From a phage, in the sequence record PZ242158.1: a stretch of DNA of 64,000 bases, one strand, 5' to 3'. A program made the translations under genes and the position numbers. A model generated the notes under the pieces. It was not told the origin of the DNA. It ran no database searches and worked only from the letters and a program-made list of their open reading frames with translations. Below are positions 2,880 to 60,665 of this stretch, piece by piece (position 1 is the first letter of the stretch; every line of letters starts with the position of its first letter).

Positions 2880-5303
2880 ATGAGCATGTGGTCGTTCGAT
2901 TTTGAGTCATCCGGTTTGCTGGAAGACCCAGATCTTTATTATCACTGCGGCCTGTTTAAAGAGCTGAATAAGAACCGTTTTATGCTGTTCCTTCCTCTGA
3001 ATGACCGCACACACTACTCCGAGGAGGATATAGAGAAGGCCAAGAACTTTATTCTGGCAAAGAAAACTCTTTATAAGGATTTTGAAGTTCGCATAGCAGA
3101 TTTTTCGGAGTTGGAAGGTTGGCTTACAGGAAATTCCGACTGGTCACCAACAGCTTTGAACTGCCATAACTGCTACAGTTATGACTTTATGCTGATGGAG
3201 AGATTATCCGGTATTCATTTTGATATGTTCCGTGATCCTAAATGCATGGGGACTATCAACGACCACCAGGTTAACCTGTTTGATACGTTGGCTATGAGCC
3301 GAATCTTGTGGCCTGATCGCCCTTTACCAAAAGGTTGTCCGGACGCTGTATTCAACCCGGTTACTAAGAAAATGCAACCTGTTGGTCCTCACGGCCTTAT
3401 GGCATGGGGCTACGCCCTTGGTAACCAGAAAGTTCAAATTGATGACTGGCGCGATCTTCCGCTGTGGAAATATGTGGATCGTGTGTTCGAGGACGTTATC
3501 ATCCAGGAGTTGCTCTGGAAAGAGTTGGTAGCGGAATCAAAAGGTGTATTCTACGGCAAATCTGACATGCAGAACTTTATGTATGACCCTGCCAAAGAGA
3601 AGCCTAAAGGATTCAAGAAGATTACCTGGAAGAATGCATTACGCCGAGGCATGCTGCAGCATTTCCTGATGGAGCTGCAGGCTCGACAGGGTGTGTATTT
3701 CGACATAGATGGGGCTATTGCTTTACGTGACCGCTGCGATGCGTGGATGAAAGAGATCGCTGATCGTGTTGAACCACAACTTCCTTTAAAAGAGTTATCA
3801 ATGTCTCAGCGGCCTAAGTTCCCTGAAAAGCCGTTTAACCAGGATGGGACAATCTCCAATAATGGTTGGAAATGGTTAAAAGACAAGCTTGGCTACCCTG
3901 TGGACATGAGTGCTTTAGAATTCAAAGCTCCTCCTAAGCGAGCATTTACCTCCACAGGAGATGTCAGTAAGATGGGGATAAAATGGTGTGAAGAGATGGG
4001 CTGTAAAGACCCTGACAAGATGGCGGATTTCTTGAGGGGCTATATCAAGGGCACCTCCACACCACAACCTTTACCTAAAGAGCTAATGGATCAGGCAATA
4101 AGTGATCTACAGCAGAAGCGAATGCCTGACTGCAAGATACCTATGAAAATCAGTAATCAGGACGATATTAAGCGATACCTGATCAGTGCTGGTTGGCTTC
4201 CGACAATGTGGAGAACTAAGGATGTAACTAAAGACAGCAAGAAGAAAGCTCTACCTGATGCAGATGTTGATGCACGAGTGTATGCATATATGGACGAGCT
4301 TTTAGAGTCAGAGTATTGTGACCTAATTATCAACTTCTGGAACAAAACTGATGCTAAGTTCCAGACAACCGTGCACAAGTTCCGAAGCTTTCCTAACTCC
4401 GAAAGGATTAAAAAGGAAGTATTCGGGAAAATACGTAGAAAAGCTAGGGCACTTATTACTTCTCCGCAACTGAAAGATACGTTTGGACACCTATGCCCGA
4501 ATCTTGAAAAATTGAACGGAGAGATGGCTAAAGATATCGTCTTGTGGTTATCATTGCGAAACCGCAGATCGGTCCTTGATCCAATCAAGGAGGATAAGGT
4601 TGATACTGGTCTTCTTAATCACCCACGTTTGAAGATTGACCATAAGCTTCCTGCTAAAAGTTCTGGATTAACAAACACTTCCCGACAGAAACACAGTATT
4701 TGTGCAAACATGCCTAAACCATCTCCTAAAGTGGTTATGGGTAAAGAGATGCGTAGTCTGTGGGGTGTTCCTCCAGGATACTTTGAGATCGGTATTGACG
4801 GGTCCAACTTAGAGCAGCTTATCGGGGCTTGGGGTGCCTTTGAGTTCGACAACGGCCTGTATTACGATGTTGTAAGTAACGGGGACGCACACCAAAACAA
4901 TGCTGAGGCATATACAAAAGTAGCAGGTAGAGAGGTGTCTCGTAACGACGGTAAACCTATCACGTATGGGGTTATGTATGGGGCACAAAAAGATAAAGTT
5001 GCAGATATGCTGGACATCTCTCCAGAGTTGGGACAAAGGGTAATCGATGCACTCTGGGATGCCAACCCTGGTCTTAAGGGGCGTAAAGAAGATCTGGAGA
5101 AATTCTGGGAAGCAACGGGTAAGAAGTTTATCTACTCTTTTGATGGTCATGCTATCTGGACCCGATCTAAACACTCTTTACTTAATGCATACCAACAAAA
5201 TGGCGGCGCATCGTTGTGTGACTTAGTTGGGATACTCATGCACCATCAAATGGTGAAGCGTGGGTGGTACGATGAAGGTGTTCGTCGTATTATCTATTAC
5301 CAT
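2880..5303 (+). CDS. DNA polymerase, family A, exon 1
   Basis: AAGGAG RBS; exo motifs FDFESSG and HNCYSYD; motif B KPITYGVMYG; ORF stops one codon after the His where motif C (HDE) is expected. Confidence 0.8.
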
Positions 5304-6145
5304 AAATAACATTGTGGCTTCGTGCAGTGATGCACGTCGAAAACCTCTTTAATTGACGGGAAGGCTAAGTTGACTTTTACACCTAAACATGGTAAAAGCT
5401 CAATATGCTAATCCGCAGCGAAGACTAAAGGGGTGTAGTTAAAATGGCTAGATCAGTTGATTATCACGGATATACCGTGTTTGATGATGGAACAATACCT
5501 TTATCGAAACGTGATCATACAACAATGTTTTGTTTTGATAATGGTCGAGGTTACCTTTGCGTAACCATGTTCATCGAGGGGAAGCAGTGCACAAAAGGTG
5601 TCCACCACTTGGTTGCTGAATGCTTTGTATCAAACCCTGATCCTGAAAGGCTCACATGGGTGAACCATAAGGACGGAAACAAATACAACAATGCATACTG
5701 GAACCTTGAATGGACCACCCCTGGTGGAAATATCAAACACGCTTATGATAATGACCTCAGAGTAAGGCCAGTCGGTGAGTATAATGCCAACGCTGTACTG
5801 ACCGAGGATGAGGTAACGGAGATTTGCGAACTGTTACAGAGTGGTCTACGACAATGCGAGATTAGGGATCTTGGGTATCCTTATGAGACGGTCAGAGCCA
5901 TAAAGCAAAGAAGACAGTGGAAACATATCTCTAAAAACTACACCTGGTAGTAACGTTCAGAGACTATCGAAAGCATAGCGCCAACATAAATTGGTGCGAA
6001 GAAGCGAGTAGAGTAGGCCAGCAAGTGCGGTCGAAATGGGAGGTGCCTTGGTAACAAGGTAGTGAGATAGTCCGATCCATACAGGAAACTGTATGGCTGT
6101 GCACGTAATGGTGCGGGGTAGCTTAACGACCTACCTGAACTATTG
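5304..6145 (+). mobile_element. Group I intron in DNA polymerase gene, carrying an HNH homing endonuclease ORF
   Basis: 5' exon ends in U, intron ends in G; P-like AATTGACGGGAAGG (~5350), Q-like AATCCGCAGC (~5410), R-like GTTCAGAGACTA (~5955), S-like GAGATAGTCC (~6064); boundaries approximate. Confidence 0.7.
5444..5950 (+). CDS. HNH homing endonuclease (intron-encoded)
   Basis: HNH signature VNHKDGNKYNNAYWNLEW; C-terminal helix-turn-helix-like module; lies between Q and R elements of the intron. Confidence 0.8.
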   Translation: MARSVDYHGYTVFDDGTIPLSKRDHTTMFCFDNGRGYLCVTMFIEGKQCTKGVHHLVAECFVSNPDPERLTWVNHKDGNKYNNAYWNLEWTTPGGNIKHAYDNDLRVRPVGEYNANAVLTEDEVTEICELLQSGLRQCEIRDLGYPYETVRAIKQRRQWKHISKNYTW

Positions 6146-6499
6146 GATGAGTACCAACTTCAGGTCCCTGACACACCTAAGTATAAGACTGTGTACACCT
6201 TCGACACAATTGAAGAATTGGAAGCATTTAAGGCAGAGCAGGAGGCCAAACTTCATGTGTTCGACGGTCATAAGTACAAAAAGGCACGCAAGGATGAAAA
6301 CGGAAACGAAGTGGTTGACAGAGACGGAAACACGGTGTACGATCCTATCCTGAACGATGACGGAAAGCTTGAACTTATCTGGAGCCCTGTGGGTGAAATG
6401 GTGGTGCATTGCTTCTGGCAAGCTTCTAAAATGATGGGAGTCCCGTTCCAGATCACAGGTGAATACTTGTGTGGTCGTAACTGGGGTGATTGTCACTAA
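6146..6499 (+). CDS. DNA polymerase, family A, exon 2
   Basis: Begins DEYQLQV, completing motif C as YYH|DEY; ends GRNWGDCH, the canonical Pol A C-terminus; no RBS of its own; ORF-track start is a TTG at 6143. Confidence 0.7.
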   Translation, partial: DEYQLQVPDTPKYKTVYTFDTIEELEAFKAEQEAKLHVFDGHKYKKARKDENGNEVVDRDGNTVYDPILNDDGKLELIWSPVGEMVVHCFWQASKMMGVPFQITGEYLCGRNWGDCH

Positions 6500-54149: not shown

Positions 54150-54743
54150 TCAAATACCTTCTAAAAATTTTCCTATTTTATACCAGCTATTAGCGGTATA
54201 GTCAACACTGACCTTTAACTCCTCGAATTGCTCATAAGGCGTATCTTTTAGGATTTTAATAACTTCAGGTCGTGAAGCGAATTGGTTCAGGTATTCATGC
54301 CTGTCGTCAATTATAACATCTACAGCCACATTCCCTTTGAAATGTGTGGCGTAGAAGCCGTGGCCCTGGGTGTGATCGTCCAGATCCATAAAATCACCGG
54401 TCCAACGCTTTAAGAACCTTGATTTAGATGCAAGGTGACCTTTCTTGCATACCGAGATAAATGCAAGCTTGTGACCACGAGCCACCAAATCTTTCATAAC
54501 CTCAATAGCCCCCTCTTCAGGCTTAAGGAAGTCGTAGAGGAACGGATCACTCCAGAAATCAAAAGGTCCTATGATGTTTTCTTTGGGGCGATCAGGCCAA
54601 TACTTTGACAGATCGTAATACATCAGCCCATTAGAAGGTTTAACGACTGTCTTACTGGCTGGACCATACAAACGCTCCAACCACTCCCACCATGCTGTTC
54701 CTGAATCTACCAGTGTCAAATCTACATCAATTCCGATTAACAT
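54150..54743 (-). CDS. HAD-superfamily phosphatase, putative 5'-deoxynucleotidase
   Basis: N-terminal DxDxT motif (IGIDVDLTLVD); nucleotide-metabolism context. Confidence 0.55.
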   Translation of the reverse strand: MLIGIDVDLTLVDSGTAWWEWLERLYGPASKTVVKPSNGLMYYDLSKYWPDRPKENIIGPFDFWSDPFLYDFLKPEEGAIEVMKDLVARGHKLAFISVCKKGHLASKSRFLKRWTGDFMDLDDHTQGHGFYATHFKGNVAVDVIIDDRHEYLNQFASRPEVIKILKDTPYEQFEELKVSVDYTANSWYKIGKFLEGI

Positions 54744-55354
54744 TCTTCTTGGGCCTCTTTAGCATCAATATACTTGCACACAATCTCCGATGCACATTCC
54801 CAAGGTGCACCTTCAGGATTTACAACATCGAACTCAATCCCTTTTATTCCGTTCTTTTCCAGACTTAGATAGGTTCTGGAATCATTTCCCCAGTCATATC
54901 CGACACGGTGAATACGGAACAACAACAGATCTCCACCTGTGCTGTATGCGTACTCACTAAGGCATGCCAGCTCCTCTTTGAATCCACCATCGGAGTAAAC
55001 AACAACCCCTTTACCTTTAGGGAAATCTTTCTTCAAGGATGTGACTGCGGCCTTACCGAAAGCATCTTCACCAAAGATAGGTTTAATCAGATTTTCACTA
55101 CAATGGATCATCCACTCTCGCGGAGAAACATGCTTACCGTCTATCATTAAGAAAGGGCAAGGCTCTTCTTTGTAGTGGCGGTCATAAAGTGCATTCCAGA
55201 GTTGAGGAGTTACACCAGCTGCCTTAATTGCCACGCTGAAGAGCATCTCCTTAACCTCACGATGGTGTGAGTTAGGAATAGCTTCCAACAAGAGATCTGC
55301 AATGTGATCCTTACCACTACTAGGTGGGGCGTTAAGAACAATAATATCCATCAA
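54737..55354 (-). CDS. putative deoxynucleoside monophosphate kinase
   Basis: P-loop-like NAPPSSGKDHIADLL resembling T4 gp1 SGVKRSGKDTTADFI; context. Confidence 0.45.
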   Translation of the reverse strand: MMDIIVLNAPPSSGKDHIADLLLEAIPNSHHREVKEMLFSVAIKAAGVTPQLWNALYDRHYKEEPCPFLMIDGKHVSPREWMIHCSENLIKPIFGEDAFGKAAVTSLKKDFPKGKGVVVYSDGGFKEELACLSEYAYSTGGDLLLFRIHRVGYDWGNDSRTYLSLEKNGIKGIEFDVVNPEGAPWECASEIVCKYIDAKEAQEEC

Positions 55355-55554
55355 AAACCTCCGTGGTATTCTTCAACTGCATCAATAATACTTTTACACT
55401 TATCTACCAGCTCGTTAGCCACTACAGCATCGTCTTCCCAAACAGCCTCTTCAATCTGATCAAGCAATGATCGCATCTTATCCATCATTTCTGGGATAAA
55501 GTTTTCTGAAAAGCTGTCTGGAACTGTTAACTTTAGTGTCATTGCGGTCTCCAA
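55351..55554 (-). CDS. hypothetical protein
   Basis: Coupled ORF. Confidence 0.45.
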   Translation of the reverse strand: METAMTLKLTVPDSFSENFIPEMMDKMRSLLDQIEEAVWEDDAVVANELVDKCKSIIDAVEEYHGGF

Positions 55555-55569
55555 TCATACTATGCGTTA

Positions 55570-56028
55570 TTAGAAGTTTGTTTTTACACGTCCCTTTTCA
55601 TCTACCTCATTGTTAGCTAAAAGCGTTACAAAGTCTGTGAAACGGACATGAAGAACTCTTTTCTTGTCAAGGTATCCTAAAGCCACCCCTGAAAAATTTA
55701 GCATCAAGGGGGCTAAAGAAGCTCTGGCACTGAAATGCTGTTGTTCTACTCTTCCTACACCCTTAGTGTAGGATGGGTTAAGATTGTAAGTTCTGAATCC
55801 CAGTTTTGTTGGAGCTTTAGAATTAAAAACAACTTTATAGCGTTTCTTACTCAACTTATGCTCCAGGATAAGAATTCCCTTATCACCCTTGATAAGTTGA
55901 AAATCTGTAAAGTGCTCTTTTAAGACGAAAGGTAGTGCCAGTCCCATAGCCTGGCCTCTTTGTACCGCTGTCTCACCAAAAGCTTTTGCATCAGTAAGTT
56001 CTTTGGTCAAGTCTATGCTTTTGATCAT
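55570..56028 (-). CDS. hypothetical protein
   Basis: ORF; no domain. Confidence 0.45.
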   Translation of the reverse strand: MIKSIDLTKELTDAKAFGETAVQRGQAMGLALPFVLKEHFTDFQLIKGDKGILILEHKLSKKRYKVVFNSKAPTKLGFRTYNLNPSYTKGVGRVEQQHFSARASLAPLMLNFSGVALGYLDKKRVLHVRFTDFVTLLANNEVDEKGRVKTNF

Positions 56029-56809
56029 ACCGGGTCTCCAAAATGTATTGTAGTTCTTTCTTGCCTATACTCTTCATTCCAGCAGTCTTACCTGCTTCTT
56101 CTTGAAAAGAAGAATAGCATTCAGCAAACACTCTGTCAACACCGTCAACTAAAGATTTTATGAAATATGTAGATTCTTCAGATTTTGGATCATCATCACC
56201 CAATACTTTTCCAGCGTTATACCCAACACGTCTTACACAGAAGTCGTAGTCATCCGGTGTGCTAAAAGAAAATAACTTATTCTCTCCAATATCTACAGGA
56301 TCCCTATTGCACGCCTTTTTCTCCCAAATTTGGAAAACACATGGCACGTCATAAGGTTTGCCATTAAGTAAAAACGAGTTCTTAGGGCACCTTTCGCTGT
56401 AGACAAGGTGCATAGACATGTCCAGTTTGTTTGAAAAAAATATTTTTTCAAATGTCCGTGGCAAGATGAAGGCTATAGCCCCGCCAAGCTCTAGCAATGA
56501 TGCACAATGGTTAAAGAATTTGCAAGCTAAAGATGAATTCTTACCAAACGGTGGGTTACCTATGAAGACATCTGCCTTGGGGTGCACCTCCAAGAAGTTT
56601 GCCTGAATGCACGGTGTTGGTCCTTCAAATTCAGGATCTGGTACTAAATCGTACGACAGTATCTCTGAAAATAGTTTTGAAAAAGAACCTCTTCCAGCAG
56701 AAGGCTCAACGTATGCACAATTCCCATACTTATCTTTTACTTTACCAACAAGATATTCTGCATACTCAGGGTTTGTGTAATATTTGTCGTTGGACTCTTT
56801 CTTACTCAA
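55991..56809 (-). CDS. N6-adenine DNA methyltransferase (gamma-class)
   Basis: YYTNPEYAEYL (motif X), YVEPSAGRGSF (motif I), FIGNPPFG (motif IV); TTG start after GGAGG. Confidence 0.7.
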   Translation of the reverse strand: MSKKESNDKYYTNPEYAEYLVGKVKDKYGNCAYVEPSAGRGSFSKLFSEILSYDLVPDPEFEGPTPCIQANFLEVHPKADVFIGNPPFGKNSSLACKFFNHCASLLELGGAIAFILPRTFEKIFFSNKLDMSMHLVYSERCPKNSFLLNGKPYDVPCVFQIWEKKACNRDPVDIGENKLFSFSTPDDYDFCVRRVGYNAGKVLGDDDPKSEESTYFIKSLVDGVDRVFAECYSSFQEEAGKTAGMKSIGKKELQYILETRYDQKHRLDQRTY

Positions 56810-56816
56810 AGTGCCT

Positions 56817-56846
56817 CCAAAAGGAAAAGGGAGGCTTGCGCCTCCC
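56817..56846 (-). terminator. rho-independent terminator
   Basis: GGGAGGC-GCAA-GCCTCCC hairpin followed by TTTTCCTTTT on the minus strand. Confidence 0.6.
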
Positions 56847-56854
56847 TATACTTG

Positions 56855-57838
56855 TTAGATTATCTGAATCAGGGTGTTTTTCATCTCTTCTCTGGTACGG
56901 ATGTTGTTACGATCACGAACAACAGATCCACAACCTTCACAGCGGTATGTTTTAAATGCACTCAGCTGAGTATATGCCAAAGCTTCTTCCTCGTGAAGGT
57001 GTTCTCCACCACAGCGTGGGCAACGAACCTTTGGCTCCTCGTCCTGGTAGTACAATGACATGTTTGGGTGCTGCTTAGCAAACGGGCGAGCCAGCAAATA
57101 CAGTCCTTCCAGAGACAGGATATCACCAACATTATACTCCCGCATCTGTTTAAATGCCTCAAGATCACCATGGACACACTTGATCCACATTTCAAATGTG
57201 TGATCAATCAGTTTCTGTCGGGCCAGTTGGAAGTATTTGCATGCATACTCCAAAGTGTTTGCATTCAAACGAAATGCCTTTTTGATCATTTTAAGGGTGT
57301 CAACATCTTTGTAGGGGCTTGTTGGAGGCAACCCGTGAAATGCAAATCGTTGGTTGGCCCACCCGCAGTCAAAACCTGAATTGTGGGCTACTGCGACATC
57401 GCATTTATCCAGATAATACCACAAATCCTGAATCAATTCGAGATCATTGTGAATATCCTCATCCCACATTTTGTAATCTGGAAGAGCGCAATCAACCACA
57501 CTAGGGCTGTCTAACCACTTACCTGCGAAAGTTAGCATATAGGGCATAACTTCAATACCACAGGTTTGAATGTTGGTCTTATAGTGCCCAAAGAACCAGC
57601 CGTTTGTTGGGGATGTCTCTGTATCATACACCCAAACTTTAGCACCTTTGTGCTCTTCAAGGAAGCGCTCCGTTGCCTCTCCTACAATCTCTGACATATT
57701 CTCTTGTGCACGTCTAAGCTGTAGTCGGATCCAGCTCTCACGTGACTCACGGCCTAAAAATTCACGAGCAATTTGTCTATTAGTGTATCCCTGTTGCTTT
57801 AGTGTTAAAATTTGCTCAAGAGTTAACTTTGTCATCAT
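56855..57838 (-). CDS. DEDDh 3'-5' exonuclease with N-terminal helix-turn-helix
   Basis: Exo I VYDTETS, Exo II AHNSGFDCGW, Exo III CVHGDLEAF; N-terminal LTLKQQGYTNRQIAREF HTH; C-terminal CPRCGG...CEGCG zinc ribbon. Confidence 0.7.
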   Translation of the reverse strand: MMTKLTLEQILTLKQQGYTNRQIAREFLGRESRESWIRLQLRRAQENMSEIVGEATERFLEEHKGAKVWVYDTETSPTNGWFFGHYKTNIQTCGIEVMPYMLTFAGKWLDSPSVVDCALPDYKMWDEDIHNDLELIQDLWYYLDKCDVAVAHNSGFDCGWANQRFAFHGLPPTSPYKDVDTLKMIKKAFRLNANTLEYACKYFQLARQKLIDHTFEMWIKCVHGDLEAFKQMREYNVGDILSLEGLYLLARPFAKQHPNMSLYYQDEEPKVRCPRCGGEHLHEEEALAYTQLSAFKTYRCEGCGSVVRDRNNIRTREEMKNTLIQII

Positions 57839-57850
57839 CGTTAAGATTCC

Positions 57851-58072
57851 TTAGTAAAACTGAAGAATGTCTTTTAAAGCGAAGTCACGATATTCGCCCT
57901 TGTCTACATCGAAGGCACGCATCAACCACTGCTCTTCTTTATGATACTCTGTAGAGCCAAACCATAAATTAGGCTCAGTAACGCAGCGATCTGCAACAAC
58001 ACCTTTCCAGTTACGGTATTTCATCCTGATCAGGACTGAGTCGCAAGGATTGAATACCTTTTTCATCCCCAT
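57851..58072 (-). CDS. hypothetical protein
   Basis: Short ORF. Confidence 0.4.
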   Translation of the reverse strand: MGMKKVFNPCDSVLIRMKYRNWKGVVADRCVTEPNLWFGSTEYHKEEQWLMRAFDVDKGEYRDFALKDILQFY

Positions 58073-58616
58073 AGAAATCTCTCTCCTCAGTTTTCTTTAT
58101 AAACTCTTGCATGTAGAACTCAATAGCCTCATGCTTGGTGCACTCCGGATCAATGACAAGATTGAGATCTGATTCTGCTCGTGCAATAATCGTAGCTTTA
58201 GAGCATCTCCTCAAGAACTTTGTCATATCATCTCTGTAGTTTTTGTGGAGCGGGAAGTCGCTGTAGTCTTTCTCCAAATAGTCAGCCATCCGGCGCAACG
58301 CCTCTGATAAACTGCAATCTGTATACTCGTTACAGTATTTCATCCAGTATTTAAGCACATACCCCTCAAAGGTATTAGTGCATTGAGACAAAACACCCCT
58401 GCAACGACCAGTCAGATGATCATGATCTAAACAAGGCTTACGAAGTGGCTCGCACAAGATCGGATCAAGACCATCCTGCTCCTCTGACAATTCTTTTCGA
58501 AAGTTGGCTATGTCCTTAGAATCTTTTAACCACCCGTTATGAACTGGGGCTTTGACAGCTTTCTTTCTTATTTTACGCTTTGCGATAATCCCTCCAGATG
58601 AGCCCTGCCTATCCAA
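58011..58616 (-). CDS. endonuclease VII-like Holliday junction resolvase
   Basis: C..C...DHDH...G.CRGVL..C motif as in T4 endonuclease VII; start uncertain. Confidence 0.75.
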   Translation of the reverse strand: MDRQGSSGGIIAKRKIRKKAVKAPVHNGWLKDSKDIANFRKELSEEQDGLDPILCEPLRKPCLDHDHLTGRCRGVLSQCTNTFEGYVLKYWMKYCNEYTDCSLSEALRRMADYLEKDYSDFPLHKNYRDDMTKFLRRCSKATIIARAESDLNLVIDPECTKHEAIEFYMQEFIKKTEERDFYGDEKGIQSLRLSPDQDEIP

Positions 58617-59197
58617 TAAGCATCTGCGAGATCGGCCTTACCTTGTACCAAATTGATCCCGTCTAGGAACCCAGGTTCAGATACTTCGCAGGCCTTAACC
58701 ATCAACTTTTTATCCATTGTAACAGGTTTCTTCACAGTATGCTCTTTACCTGTCTTTTTGTCAAGCTTTTTCTTCTCCTCAAAAGCAAGTTCTTCAGGAA
58801 GATGACTACGAGCAAACTTTTTGGCAGTTGTTGGTGTCACTGTGTGGACCTTAAACAGGCCGTCATTTTCACAATCAGCTAAGGCATCCCAAAGCATAAT
58901 TTCAAGACCGTAAAACAACCCAGCCAGTTCACGTGTGGCATCCCCGCGTGATCCAAAGGAAAGCCCTTCCATAACCACGGTGTCAACGTGATGCGTGTGG
59001 ATATAATATCTGACCTGTTTGCAGATCCAGTCAATACGCTCAGCAGCTGTTGCAAAAGAAACCGTCCCTGGTTTCTTCTCTTTTGCAGATGAGCTTTGAG
59101 TTCGTAACACAACCTTATGAACAGGCTTTCCATCGTCCCATACAACGCAAGCTGTGTGTGTCAACGACTGGTCTATGGATAATAGACGCTCTCTCAT
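58568..59197 (-). CDS. RuvC-like resolvase
   Basis: LLSIDQSLTHTACVV N-terminal RNase H-fold motif, VVMEGLSF, C-terminal ADLADAYWIGRAHL. Confidence 0.6.
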   Translation of the reverse strand: MRERLLSIDQSLTHTACVVWDDGKPVHKVVLRTQSSSAKEKKPGTVSFATAAERIDWICKQVRYYIHTHHVDTVVMEGLSFGSRGDATRELAGLFYGLEIMLWDALADCENDGLFKVHTVTPTTAKKFARSHLPEELAFEEKKKLDKKTGKEHTVKKPVTMDKKLMVKACEVSEPGFLDGINLVQGKADLADAYWIGRAHLEGLSQSVK

Positions 59198-59529
59198 GCT
59201 TCCTCATCCTCCTCTCCTTCATCAGGAGCATAAGCCTTATCTTTGAACAAGACGAGAGAGCAAAGCTTAACATCTGTTTCCACACTGGTGAACATGCATA
59301 ACCGCTCGCCCTCAATCAGCTCACAATCCTCTTTTAAAACAGCAGACCATACACGGTCATCTGCGTAATCATCCGTGTACAGGATGTATGAAATGGTGTC
59401 ATCTTCATACAACCGCCACATACCTGTGGCAACAATAAATGTATTTTTTGTTTTAATGGCCCCTGTTGTATGATCATCCTCAAAAACAGCTTCCATGATT
59501 GCATTATCTACAGAATTTTTAGTCATCAA
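59194..59529 (-). CDS. hypothetical protein
   Basis: Coupled ORF. Confidence 0.45.
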   Translation of the reverse strand: MMTKNSVDNAIMEAVFEDDHTTGAIKTKNTFIVATGMWRLYEDDTISYILYTDDYADDRVWSAVLKEDCELIEGERLCMFTSVETDVKLCSLVLFKDKAYAPDEGEEDEEA

Positions 59530-60665
59530 ATTGCTCCAACATTTCTAAGAACGTTAACAAGTTTTGTTTGATCATTGAATGTTCGCTTCATATACAAACA
59601 GTCAAAAATTATACTCATCCATTGACCTACGGAAATTCTACGATCAACACCATTGAAGTCAGTATACTTAACAACACCTTTCGGGAACCACTTCTTGTAC
59701 TGATCAATAATAGCCACCCACATCTCCTTTGGAGTGCTGCACTGAGACAGTAGGTAGAATGCTGAGGCATCCCCGAACTTACCCTTACCGATAAGTCCTT
59801 GATACGGCTTGATATTGTCAGCAGAGTCACCACACAGCATTTGGTATCCGAAGAACAGCATTCCGTAACCACCAACCTCTCCATTAGGCTTCATGAAGAT
59901 GTTCCCCATACCGTTATCGATCAGCATAGGGGTTTCCCTTACAAAATCTCCCTTATCGTTTCGCATGGGATCGAACACAAGCCCCGGTAGTGTTCTTTGG
60001 TCCTTATCAATAGAGATAATAAACTTGTTGAACTTACCTGTTTTTTGGTAGTGGTTCCAACCTTCAAATTGCTGAATAGCTAACCAGTCGTCAGCCTCGA
60101 TACCGTTGATCACTTGAGCATTATACTGCTTTTGGAGATACTGTCTTGCATCTCCAAGCAGCAGTGGTCGAAGAGTATTGTTACGGTTGGCCTTGTATCT
60201 TTCCGGCATTGGAAGATCTAGTCTGAAGTTACCTGTGCCTCCCAACACCCCGACACATCGCTCTTCCGGAATACCCAGATAGTTAAGAACTGCATTAGCT
60301 TTACACTTAATTGTGTGTAAGCAGTTCTCTACAGGATCAGGGGTTTGGATATCCAAGACATCGAAATCTTCGCGTGTCCACGGAATAAACTCCTTTCCAG
60401 CCTTTTTACATGCGGCTTCACGGTTGGTATTCTCAGCTTTTAACCAACCACCAACGGTGTTCTTCTGCCTCCCCCAGAACTCTGTTCGTGTTTTAAACAT
60501 CTTCTTGCGTCCGGAGGCTTTGTGTGTTACCTCAATTGTCCTTTTTTCACAACTTGCCGCAGCTTGATATGCAACCTGGTCGAAGTCATAATAAACTATA
60601 GCGTCAGGTTCGAGAAGATCAGCAAGACAATCTACAGATTCAATAAGTGGATATTCTCTACTCAA
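59526..60665 (-). CDS. 5'-3' exonuclease / flap endonuclease (T4 RNase H-like)
   Basis: GIEADDWLAIQQ and CGDSADNIKP FEN-family motifs; N-terminal YYDFDQVAY. Confidence 0.75.
   Translation of the reverse strand: MSREYPLIESVDCLADLLEPDAIVYYDFDQVAYQAAASCEKRTIEVTHKASGRKKMFKTRTEFWGRQKNTVGGWLKAENTNREAACKKAGKEFIPWTREDFDVLDIQTPDPVENCLHTIKCKANAVLNYLGIPEERCVGVLGGTGNFRLDLPMPERYKANRNNTLRPLLLGDARQYLQKQYNAQVINGIEADDWLAIQQFEGWNHYQKTGKFNKFIISIDKDQRTLPGLVFDPMRNDKGDFVRETPMLIDNGMGNIFMKPNGEVGGYGMLFFGYQMLCGDSADNIKPYQGLIGKGKFGDASAFYLLSQCSTPKEMWVAIIDQYKKWFPKGVVKYTDFNGVDRRISVGQWMSIIFDCLYMKRTFNDQTKLVNVLRNVGAI

Follow-up and report, generated by a model that had tools for sequence, protein, structure and literature searches.

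Proteins of the phage family PHROG 403, annotated as 'DNA polymerase exonuclease subunit', include gp093 of phage JES2013, the 'DNA exonuclease' gp24 of the phiKMV-like phage JG068, gp189 of ICP1 and the 'DnaQ-like' proteins of mycobacteriophages. Here we analyze a further member, which shows no substantive difference from them and is encoded by a minus-strand open reading frame (ORF) at 56855-57838 of sequence record PZ242158.1, a 64,000-nucleotide stretch of phage DNA that we refer to as the window. The same fold class and DEDD carboxylates are found in PF13482 (RNase_H_2; YprB/MrfB, COG3359) and PF10108 (DNA_pol_B_exo2, COG3298), whose domain-bearing homologs are 23-30% identical. PF13482 contains a phage-only cluster, F.23, that is tightly linked to PolB-exonuclease clusters (Majorek et al. 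2014, PMC3985635). The one PF13482 protein that we found to be characterised, MrfB/YprB of Bacillus subtilis, is a Mg-dependent exonuclease on linear double-stranded DNA that was modelled on the exonuclease domain of Pol epsilon (bioRxiv 10.1101/426304). MrfB has C-terminal tetratricopeptide repeats and a helicase partner, MrfA, whereas the window protein has a zinc ribbon, a helix-turn-helix (HTH) and no adjacent helicase; a catalytic His was assigned by the authors of that study, whereas the window family has an invariant Tyr. The proofreading domains of archaeal PolB, Pol epsilon, Escherichia coli Pol II and T7 gp5 are 13-17% identical to the window protein, which differs from them in having no polymerase domain and in carrying the HTH and zinc ribbon.

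The window protein (327 aa, ATG start, TAA stop) is a near-identical copy of an annotated protein in a very large known family. It is 99.7% identical to JES2013 gp093 (YP_008530338), which GenBank labels 'putative DNA polymerase/exonuclease' and RefSeq 'DNA polymerase exonuclease subunit'. The PHROG 403 profile matches it at full length (protein 2-326 against profile 2-320 of 321; E 2.6e-110, 369 bits), tblastn found relatives in at least 1,536 phage records, and the exonuclease family comprises 4,874 representatives at 50% identity. Because of the full-length match and the tblastn relatives, the ORF is not a chance one. A preliminary description of the locus had placed its boundaries exactly, and the strings quoted there lie at the expected residues: LTLKQQGYTNRQIAREF at 11-27, VYDTETS at 70-76, AHNSGFDCGW at 151-160, CVHGDLEAF at 221-229, CPRCGG at 273-278 and CEGCG at 300-304. 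The fusion of HTH, exonuclease and zinc ribbon is the standard architecture of this large, already annotated phage family and is not peculiar to the window phage. Distant members of PHROG 403 either lack the HTH (JG068 gp24, 264 aa) or have other N-terminal modules. The gene is laid out as follows, with counts referring to 158 family representatives.

56855..57838, minus strand: complete ORF encoding HTH, linker, DEDDy exonuclease and zinc ribbon; stop codon TAA at 56855-56857
57698..57826, minus strand: predicted three-helix HTH, residues 5-47 (helices 7-15, 20-27 and 31-47 in the AlphaFold2 (AF2) model)
57647..57697, minus strand: predicted flexible linker, residues 48-64
57074..57646, minus strand: predicted DEDDy 3'-5' exonuclease core with RNase H-like fold, residues 65-255
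57611..57631, minus strand: Exo I, VYDTETS (D72 and E74 in 156/158, the rest being gaps)
57359..57388, minus strand: Exo II, AHNSGFDCGW (N153 in 156/158, F156 in 151/158, D157 in 158/158)
57152..57178, minus strand: CVHGDLEAF, a non-conserved helix segment that is no catalytic motif
57107..57142, minus strand: the true Exo III, REYNVGDILSLE (Y235-x3-D239 and E244; Y235 in 155/158, D239 in 155/158, N236 in 118/158)
56915..57031, minus strand: predicted zinc ribbon, residues 270-308 (CPRCG, 23 residues, CEGCG; predicted beta strands 281-289, 294-300 and 306-308)

We assign the enzyme, from its motifs, to the DEDDy class (PolB/T7-Pol exonuclease-like) because Exo III is an invariant Y235-x3-D239 that aligns to Y170 and D174 of T7 gp5, and because H223 and D225 are not conserved. 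Conservation was read from alignments of 9, 51 (A2) and 158 relatives of rising diversity, the largest drawn from the 4,874 representatives. Exo I and Exo II stand as first described, with D72, E74, N153, F156 and D157 invariant or nearly so. The family hidden Markov model (HMM) aligns Exo II to FHNGHKYD65 of T7 gp5 and Exo III, Y235-N-V-G-D239 in the window protein, to DY170-NVQ-D174; the three representatives that lack Y235 and D239 have gaps there. The T7 gp5 sequence used for this was verified to be identical to residues 1-192 of PDB 6n7w_H.

The preliminary description had named a DEDDh exonuclease (the class of DnaQ and RNase T), taking CVHGDLEAF as Exo III. An H-x-D string does exist at 223-225, and RNase_T is the best Pfam match of the window protein, at a sub-threshold 23.0 bits against a gathering score (GA) of 24. 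DEDDh enzymes of the DnaQ family (DnaQ/Pol III epsilon, RNase T, ExoI/ExoX) are spaced H-x4-D in Exo III, whereas the string at 223-225 is H-x-D and the conserved Exo III of the window protein is Y-x3-D. Position 223 is E, N, K, H or D across the family (His in 2 of the 51 A2 relatives), and position 225 is D in 82 of the 158 representatives and in 5 of the 51. Residue 234, at which a DEDDh enzyme would carry its His ahead of D239, is E in the window protein; the column is mostly D or E and holds His in 1/51. With Y235-x3-D239 invariant and aligned to T7 Y170/D174, the DEDDh reading is refuted at the sequence level and hardly credible.

A fold search returned exonucleases as structural neighbours and placed the RNase H-like fold nearest the proofreading domains of PolB and T7-Pol. 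One JGI homolog bears the name 'transposase-like protein'. A transposase-like reading, built on an HTH_38 domain, an RNase H fold and a zinc ribbon, was considered and dropped since the catalytic set is DEDDy, the neighbours by structure are exonucleases and the gene is syntenic, not mobile.

The name of the family implies a trans-acting proofreading subunit that would associate with the family-A polymerase and excise wrongly incorporated 3' nucleotides, the part played by epsilon in Pol III. The polymerase in question is encoded far from the exonuclease gene.

2880-5309, plus strand: DNA polymerase, T7-like family A, with D7, E9, D102 and D205 kept

These four carboxylates align to D5, E7, D65 and D174 of T7 gp5 (score 113 against 24.6 +/- 8.2 for shuffles), in keeping with the earlier remark that the polymerase has exonuclease motifs of its own. 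The alignment was made directly to T7 gp5 because the sequences for a profile of polymerase N-termini (A4) were too few and too divergent. Retention of all four residues speaks against a need for external proofreading by this protein, as does the position of its gene, ~51 kb from pol and on the opposite strand. Mycobacteriophage Boomer, inspected over 23.4-58 kb, and Flavobacterium phage mumin9-1, inspected in full, both carry a family member and show no annotated DNA polymerase there. The NCBIfam epsilon equivalogs score far below cut-off (PRK05711 / TIGR01406, 26.3 bits against 196 and 22.5 against 222.7), the class is DEDDy rather than DEDDh, and epsilon has neither an HTH nor a zinc ribbon. 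The names 'DNA polymerase exonuclease subunit' and 'DnaQ-like DNA polymerase III subunit' are homology-derived, and the former is unsupported. We regard the proofreading role as improbable; an obligatory polymerase-subunit role is most likely not the case because the polymerase keeps its exonuclease carboxylates and some carriers have no annotated polymerase. The protein does have an exonuclease fold, stand apart from the polymerase and bear an HTH; the idea of a separate nuclease with a targeting domain is reasonable but applies to the whole family. Recent paralogy between the protein and the exonuclease domain of the polymerase was rejected, as BLASTP of one against the other returned nothing and the family HMM did not match the N-terminus of the polymerase.

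The N-terminus is a genuine HTH as far as family profiles and the structural model tell. AF2 predicts three helices, with block-mean pLDDT (the model's per-residue confidence) of 77-88 over residues 1-40. By itself the window protein stays sub-threshold against all HTH models, including HTH_38 (14.4-17.8 bits against a GA of 27) and HTH_7. We built a profile (A3) from 30 family N-termini with the pattern G-x-S/T-x-R-x-I-A ... S-T-V, and it matches solved HTH domains in the PDB: the PAI subdomain of Sleeping Beauty (2m8e, 1.4e-5), RhlR (7r3g, 9.3e-5) and NarL (1je8, 4.9e-4), followed by DosR (5.6e-4) and Tn3 resolvase (5cy1, 3.5e-3). A Pfam scan of the 30 members found HTH_38 in 18, HTH_23 in 11, HTH_SB in 7, HTH_7 in 5, Sigma70_r4_2 in 5 and GerE in 4. 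By these matches the nearest relatives appear to be HTHs of the transposase/resolvase type (HTH_38/HTH_23), with the LuxR type next. The label 'sigma-70 region 4 / LuxR-like' is acceptable in a loose sense, since LuxR-type matches are significant, but a transposase HTH ranks first and HTH_38 is the most frequent hit. The pattern and the three predicted helices are shared with the transposase/resolvase and LuxR-type HTHs (HTH_38, HTH_23, HTH_7, GerE). There the domain sits on a recombinase or regulator, whereas here it sits on an exonuclease, and in rV5-clade proteins its turn (FLGRESRES) has 3 extra residues compared with classical HTHs. The linker that follows is the sole AF2 segment with pLDDT below 50, and neither its length nor its sequence is constant in alignments A1 and A3.

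The N-terminal position is not filled uniformly in the family. An extension of at least 25 aa is present in 139 of the 158 representatives, and the HTH profile of the window type matches 53 of these. Most other extensions are unclassifiable; those recognised by Pfam include Myb (1.2e-8), HTH_7 (3.1e-7), NUMOD1 (1.2e-5), HTH_23 and zinc ribbons. The remaining 19 representatives (~12%), JG068 gp24 among them, have essentially no extension. Because the extensions differ or are missing, the N-terminal position looks like a site where DNA-binding modules can be swapped while the core stays constant. In a few members, among the representatives P0187, P0195, P0224 and P0235, the HTH is replaced by a CxxC...CxxC zinc ribbon like those at the N-termini of IS1 InsA-type transposases.

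One could speculate that these proteins are modular 3'-5' exonucleases in which a constant engine of DEDDy core and zinc ribbon is steered to certain sites or structures in DNA by the swappable module (HTH_38/23, Myb, NUMOD1 or IS1-like zinc ribbon), a reading we hold to be distinctly unlikely. Replication origins, genome ends or the DNA of a competitor would be examples of such targets. A sequence-targeted nuclease directed against a competitor or a defence component (a satellite, a co-infecting phage, a plasmid or the nucleic acid of a defence system), with the N-terminal module giving the specificity, is very unlikely. The gene keeps a stable syntenic place in a core replication/nuclease module across distant clades, unlike sporadic accessory or anti-defence genes; the 19 members noted above do without a substantial N-terminal module, JG068 gp24 being simply shorter; and targeting alone would not suffice for an exonuclease, which has to start from an end that is already there.

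The C-terminal zinc ribbon, recognised in the preliminary description, also holds up. Its CxxC...CxxC is kept in most representatives (C273 in 153/158, C276 in 147/158, C300 in 149/158 and C303 in 143/158), and beta strands are predicted around it. A dozen zinc-ribbon matches from Pfam and NCBIfam are sub-threshold, those from Pfam at E 0.002-0.005 and below GA. One marine subclade has Ser or Thr in place of the second Cys in both knuckles. Judged by this conservation, the ribbon appears to be a family hallmark and not a peculiarity of the window phage.

The gene is part of a minus-strand neighbourhood rich in nucleases, listed here in the direction of transcription.

59526-60665, minus strand: 5'-3' FEN-like exonuclease (PHROG 107)
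58568-59197, minus strand: RuvC-like resolvase, with a 111-aa ORF between it and the 5'-3' exonuclease
58011-58616, minus strand: endonuclease VII, 201 aa (PHROG 423 and PHROG 29095)
57851-58072, minus strand: 73-aa ORF between the endonuclease VII and DEDDy exonuclease genes
57848..57852, minus strand: AAGGA, Shine-Dalgarno-like, 9 nt upstream of the exonuclease ATG
56818..56847, minus strand: intrinsic-terminator-like hairpin AGGGAGGC-GCAA-GCCTCCCT, then T-rich TTTCCTTTTG, 8 nt past the exonuclease stop codon
55991-56809, minus strand: N6-adenine methyltransferase, after the terminator-like hairpin
54737-55354, minus strand: deoxynucleoside monophosphate (dNMP) kinase, with a 152-aa ORF between it and the methyltransferase

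The protein is probably a stand-alone, metal-dependent DEDDy 3'-5' exonuclease with an HTH and a zinc ribbon that trims DNA 3' ends within this phage nuclease module, whose task would be to process DNA that has been nicked or cut. D72, E74, D157 and D239 would hold two metal ions while Y235 positions the attacking water, and two-metal hydrolysis would proceed 3'-5' from DNA 3' ends. The HTH, on its tether of ~17 residues, could recruit the enzyme to duplex DNA or retain it there, a task that may fall to Myb, NUMOD1 or zinc-ribbon modules in other members. The C-terminal zinc ribbon may help to hold the substrate strand. Together with the 5'-3' exonuclease and the junction/nick endonucleases, the enzyme would work on intermediates of recombination and replication, and perhaps also on host DNA. 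T7 gp3 and gp6 have dual roles of this kind, in processing intermediates and in breaking DNA down to nucleotides. By analogy, the module as a whole may both process recombination/replication intermediates and degrade DNA to nucleotides. Host DNA degradation and DNA-end processing, the roles proposed in the preliminary description, are both plausible, and the sequence does not tell them apart.

A more specialized role would be dedicated degradation of the host chromosome for salvage, with T4 DexA as a functional likeness. The exonuclease would digest from 3' ends after endonuclease cuts, and the dNMPs would pass to the dNMP kinase, ThyX and ribonucleotide reductase (RNR). The gene indeed lies between nucleases (5'-3' exonuclease, RuvC-like resolvase, endonuclease VII) and nucleotide-metabolism genes in the window, in a close relative where ThyX and RNR genes follow further on, in ICP1 and in a Pakpunavirus. 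In the rV5 genome paper, too, the exo- and endodeoxyribonucleases of the phage are put in one group with nucleotide metabolism (PMC3606486). However, the family also occurs in Boomer, which is temperate (integrase and repressor) and in which wholesale destruction of host DNA is unlikely, and we saw no sign of discrimination between host and phage DNA. We consider such dedication unlikely; it overlaps with the role of a 3'-end-trimming nuclease rather than excluding it.

Several points weigh against the assignment of a stand-alone, HTH-bearing DEDDy exonuclease. The window protein falls below every Pfam gathering score, its RNase_T match included, and no match to PF13482 or PF10108 is listed for it even at E up to 10. 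Among 51 relatives (E up to 0.001), PF13482 matches 44, PF00929 40 and PF10108 33. Because these homologs match both models while the window protein does not, its membership in PF13482 and PF10108 appears to be transitive via the family, not direct. The N-termini in A3 were selected visually because they resembled that of the window protein, and AF2 confidence in the zinc-ribbon region is moderate (block-mean pLDDT 61-76 over residues 261-310). What we say of activity and polarity, of the substrate (DNA or RNA, in single or double strands) and of DNA binding through the HTH is read from the sequence, and the biological role is read from synteny and analogy. A literature search, in which subscription journals were thinly covered so that absence is not proof, found no biochemical or genetic work on any phage member; it returned homology-based annotations and, for a distant relative of cellular origin, the study of MrfB. 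The rV5 genome paper (PMC3606486) does not specifically discuss the exonuclease gene. In the rV5-like phage EdH4, whose protein is 99.1% identical to that of the window, Cas13a counter-selection works (PMC9712115), but the genes edited in that study were others.

The Shine-Dalgarno-like AAGGA, read from the sequence in the context ...TACTAAGGAATCTTAACG directly before ATGATG, overlaps the stop codon of the 73-aa ORF. At the other end, the terminator-like hairpin has 8 pairs, 6 of them G-C, and a 4-nt loop; the ribosome-binding site GGAGG and the TTG start of the N6-adenine methyltransferase gene lie downstream of it.

Parts of this gene order recur with other PHROG 403 members. In phiKMV-like podoviruses the 5'-3' exonuclease gene is likewise followed by endonuclease VII, (a small ORF) and the DEDDy exonuclease, as in JG068, where 5'-3' exonuclease, endonuclease VII and gp24 follow one another (PMC3765740). 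The order 5'-3' exonuclease ... DEDDy exonuclease ... ThyX/RNR is found in ICP1 and a Pakpunavirus. Comparison of 54737-60665 of the window with NC_047953.1 (L002) and JG068 (PMC3765740) revealed a common replication/nuclease module, with an 809-aa polymerase ORF in both. A module common to an rV5-like myovirus and a phiKMV-like podovirus suggests exchange between very different phage morphotypes. In JES2013 (L001 24013-24291), the RefSeq 'endonuclease' gp091 is just 92 aa with an unannotated gap upstream, versus 201 aa for the endonuclease VII of the window; the JES2013 gene may be truncated or under-annotated.

The window polymerase gene has peculiarities of its own. In its exonuclease domain the slot of T7 Tyr170 is occupied by R201, and Y198 lies three residues upstream. 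The gene is apparently interrupted inside motif C. The 809-aa ORF at 2880-5309 ends in ...RRIIYYHK*, and a plus-strand ORF at 6143-6499 starts with MDEYQLQV... and ends in ...GRNWGDCH, the canonical Pol A C-terminus. The group I intron model RF00028 of Rfam matches 5294-6095 over its full length (40.5 bits, below the GA of 50; E 1.2e-8), and an HNH-type homing-endonuclease-like ORF (5444-5950, 168 aa) lies inside this match. The rV5 polymerase was reported as 775 aa (PMC3606486).

The window is from a Vequintavirus (rV5-like coliphage), the DNA of the exonuclease region being 98-99% identical to records such as JES2013, navn and LL12. Several 'Campylobacter phage' deposits also match the exonuclease region at 98-99% DNA identity. 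About 20 such records (host Campylobacter jejuni; e.g., MG065646.1, MG065647.1, MG065644.1 and MG065690.1) share 98-99% identity with E. coli Vequintaviruses across 8 kb. Such identity is unexpected for phages of that host, and these unannotated deposits may be contaminated or mislabelled.

The family and its annotation are already known; what changes is the class, DEDDy in place of DEDDh, and the position of Exo III. The main value of the analysis is a correction of annotation, in that a widespread family named 'DNA polymerase exonuclease subunit' or 'DnaQ-like Pol III subunit' reads as a DEDDy stand-alone nuclease. This will not surprise a specialist and opens no long-standing question, and the mildly interesting angle is the combination of a swappable N-terminal module with a misleading family name. 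If the enzymes were modular and targeted, the family would be the exonuclease counterpart of the modular homing endonucleases and would have a specific, hitherto unrecognised role in phage replication or in conflict between genetic elements.

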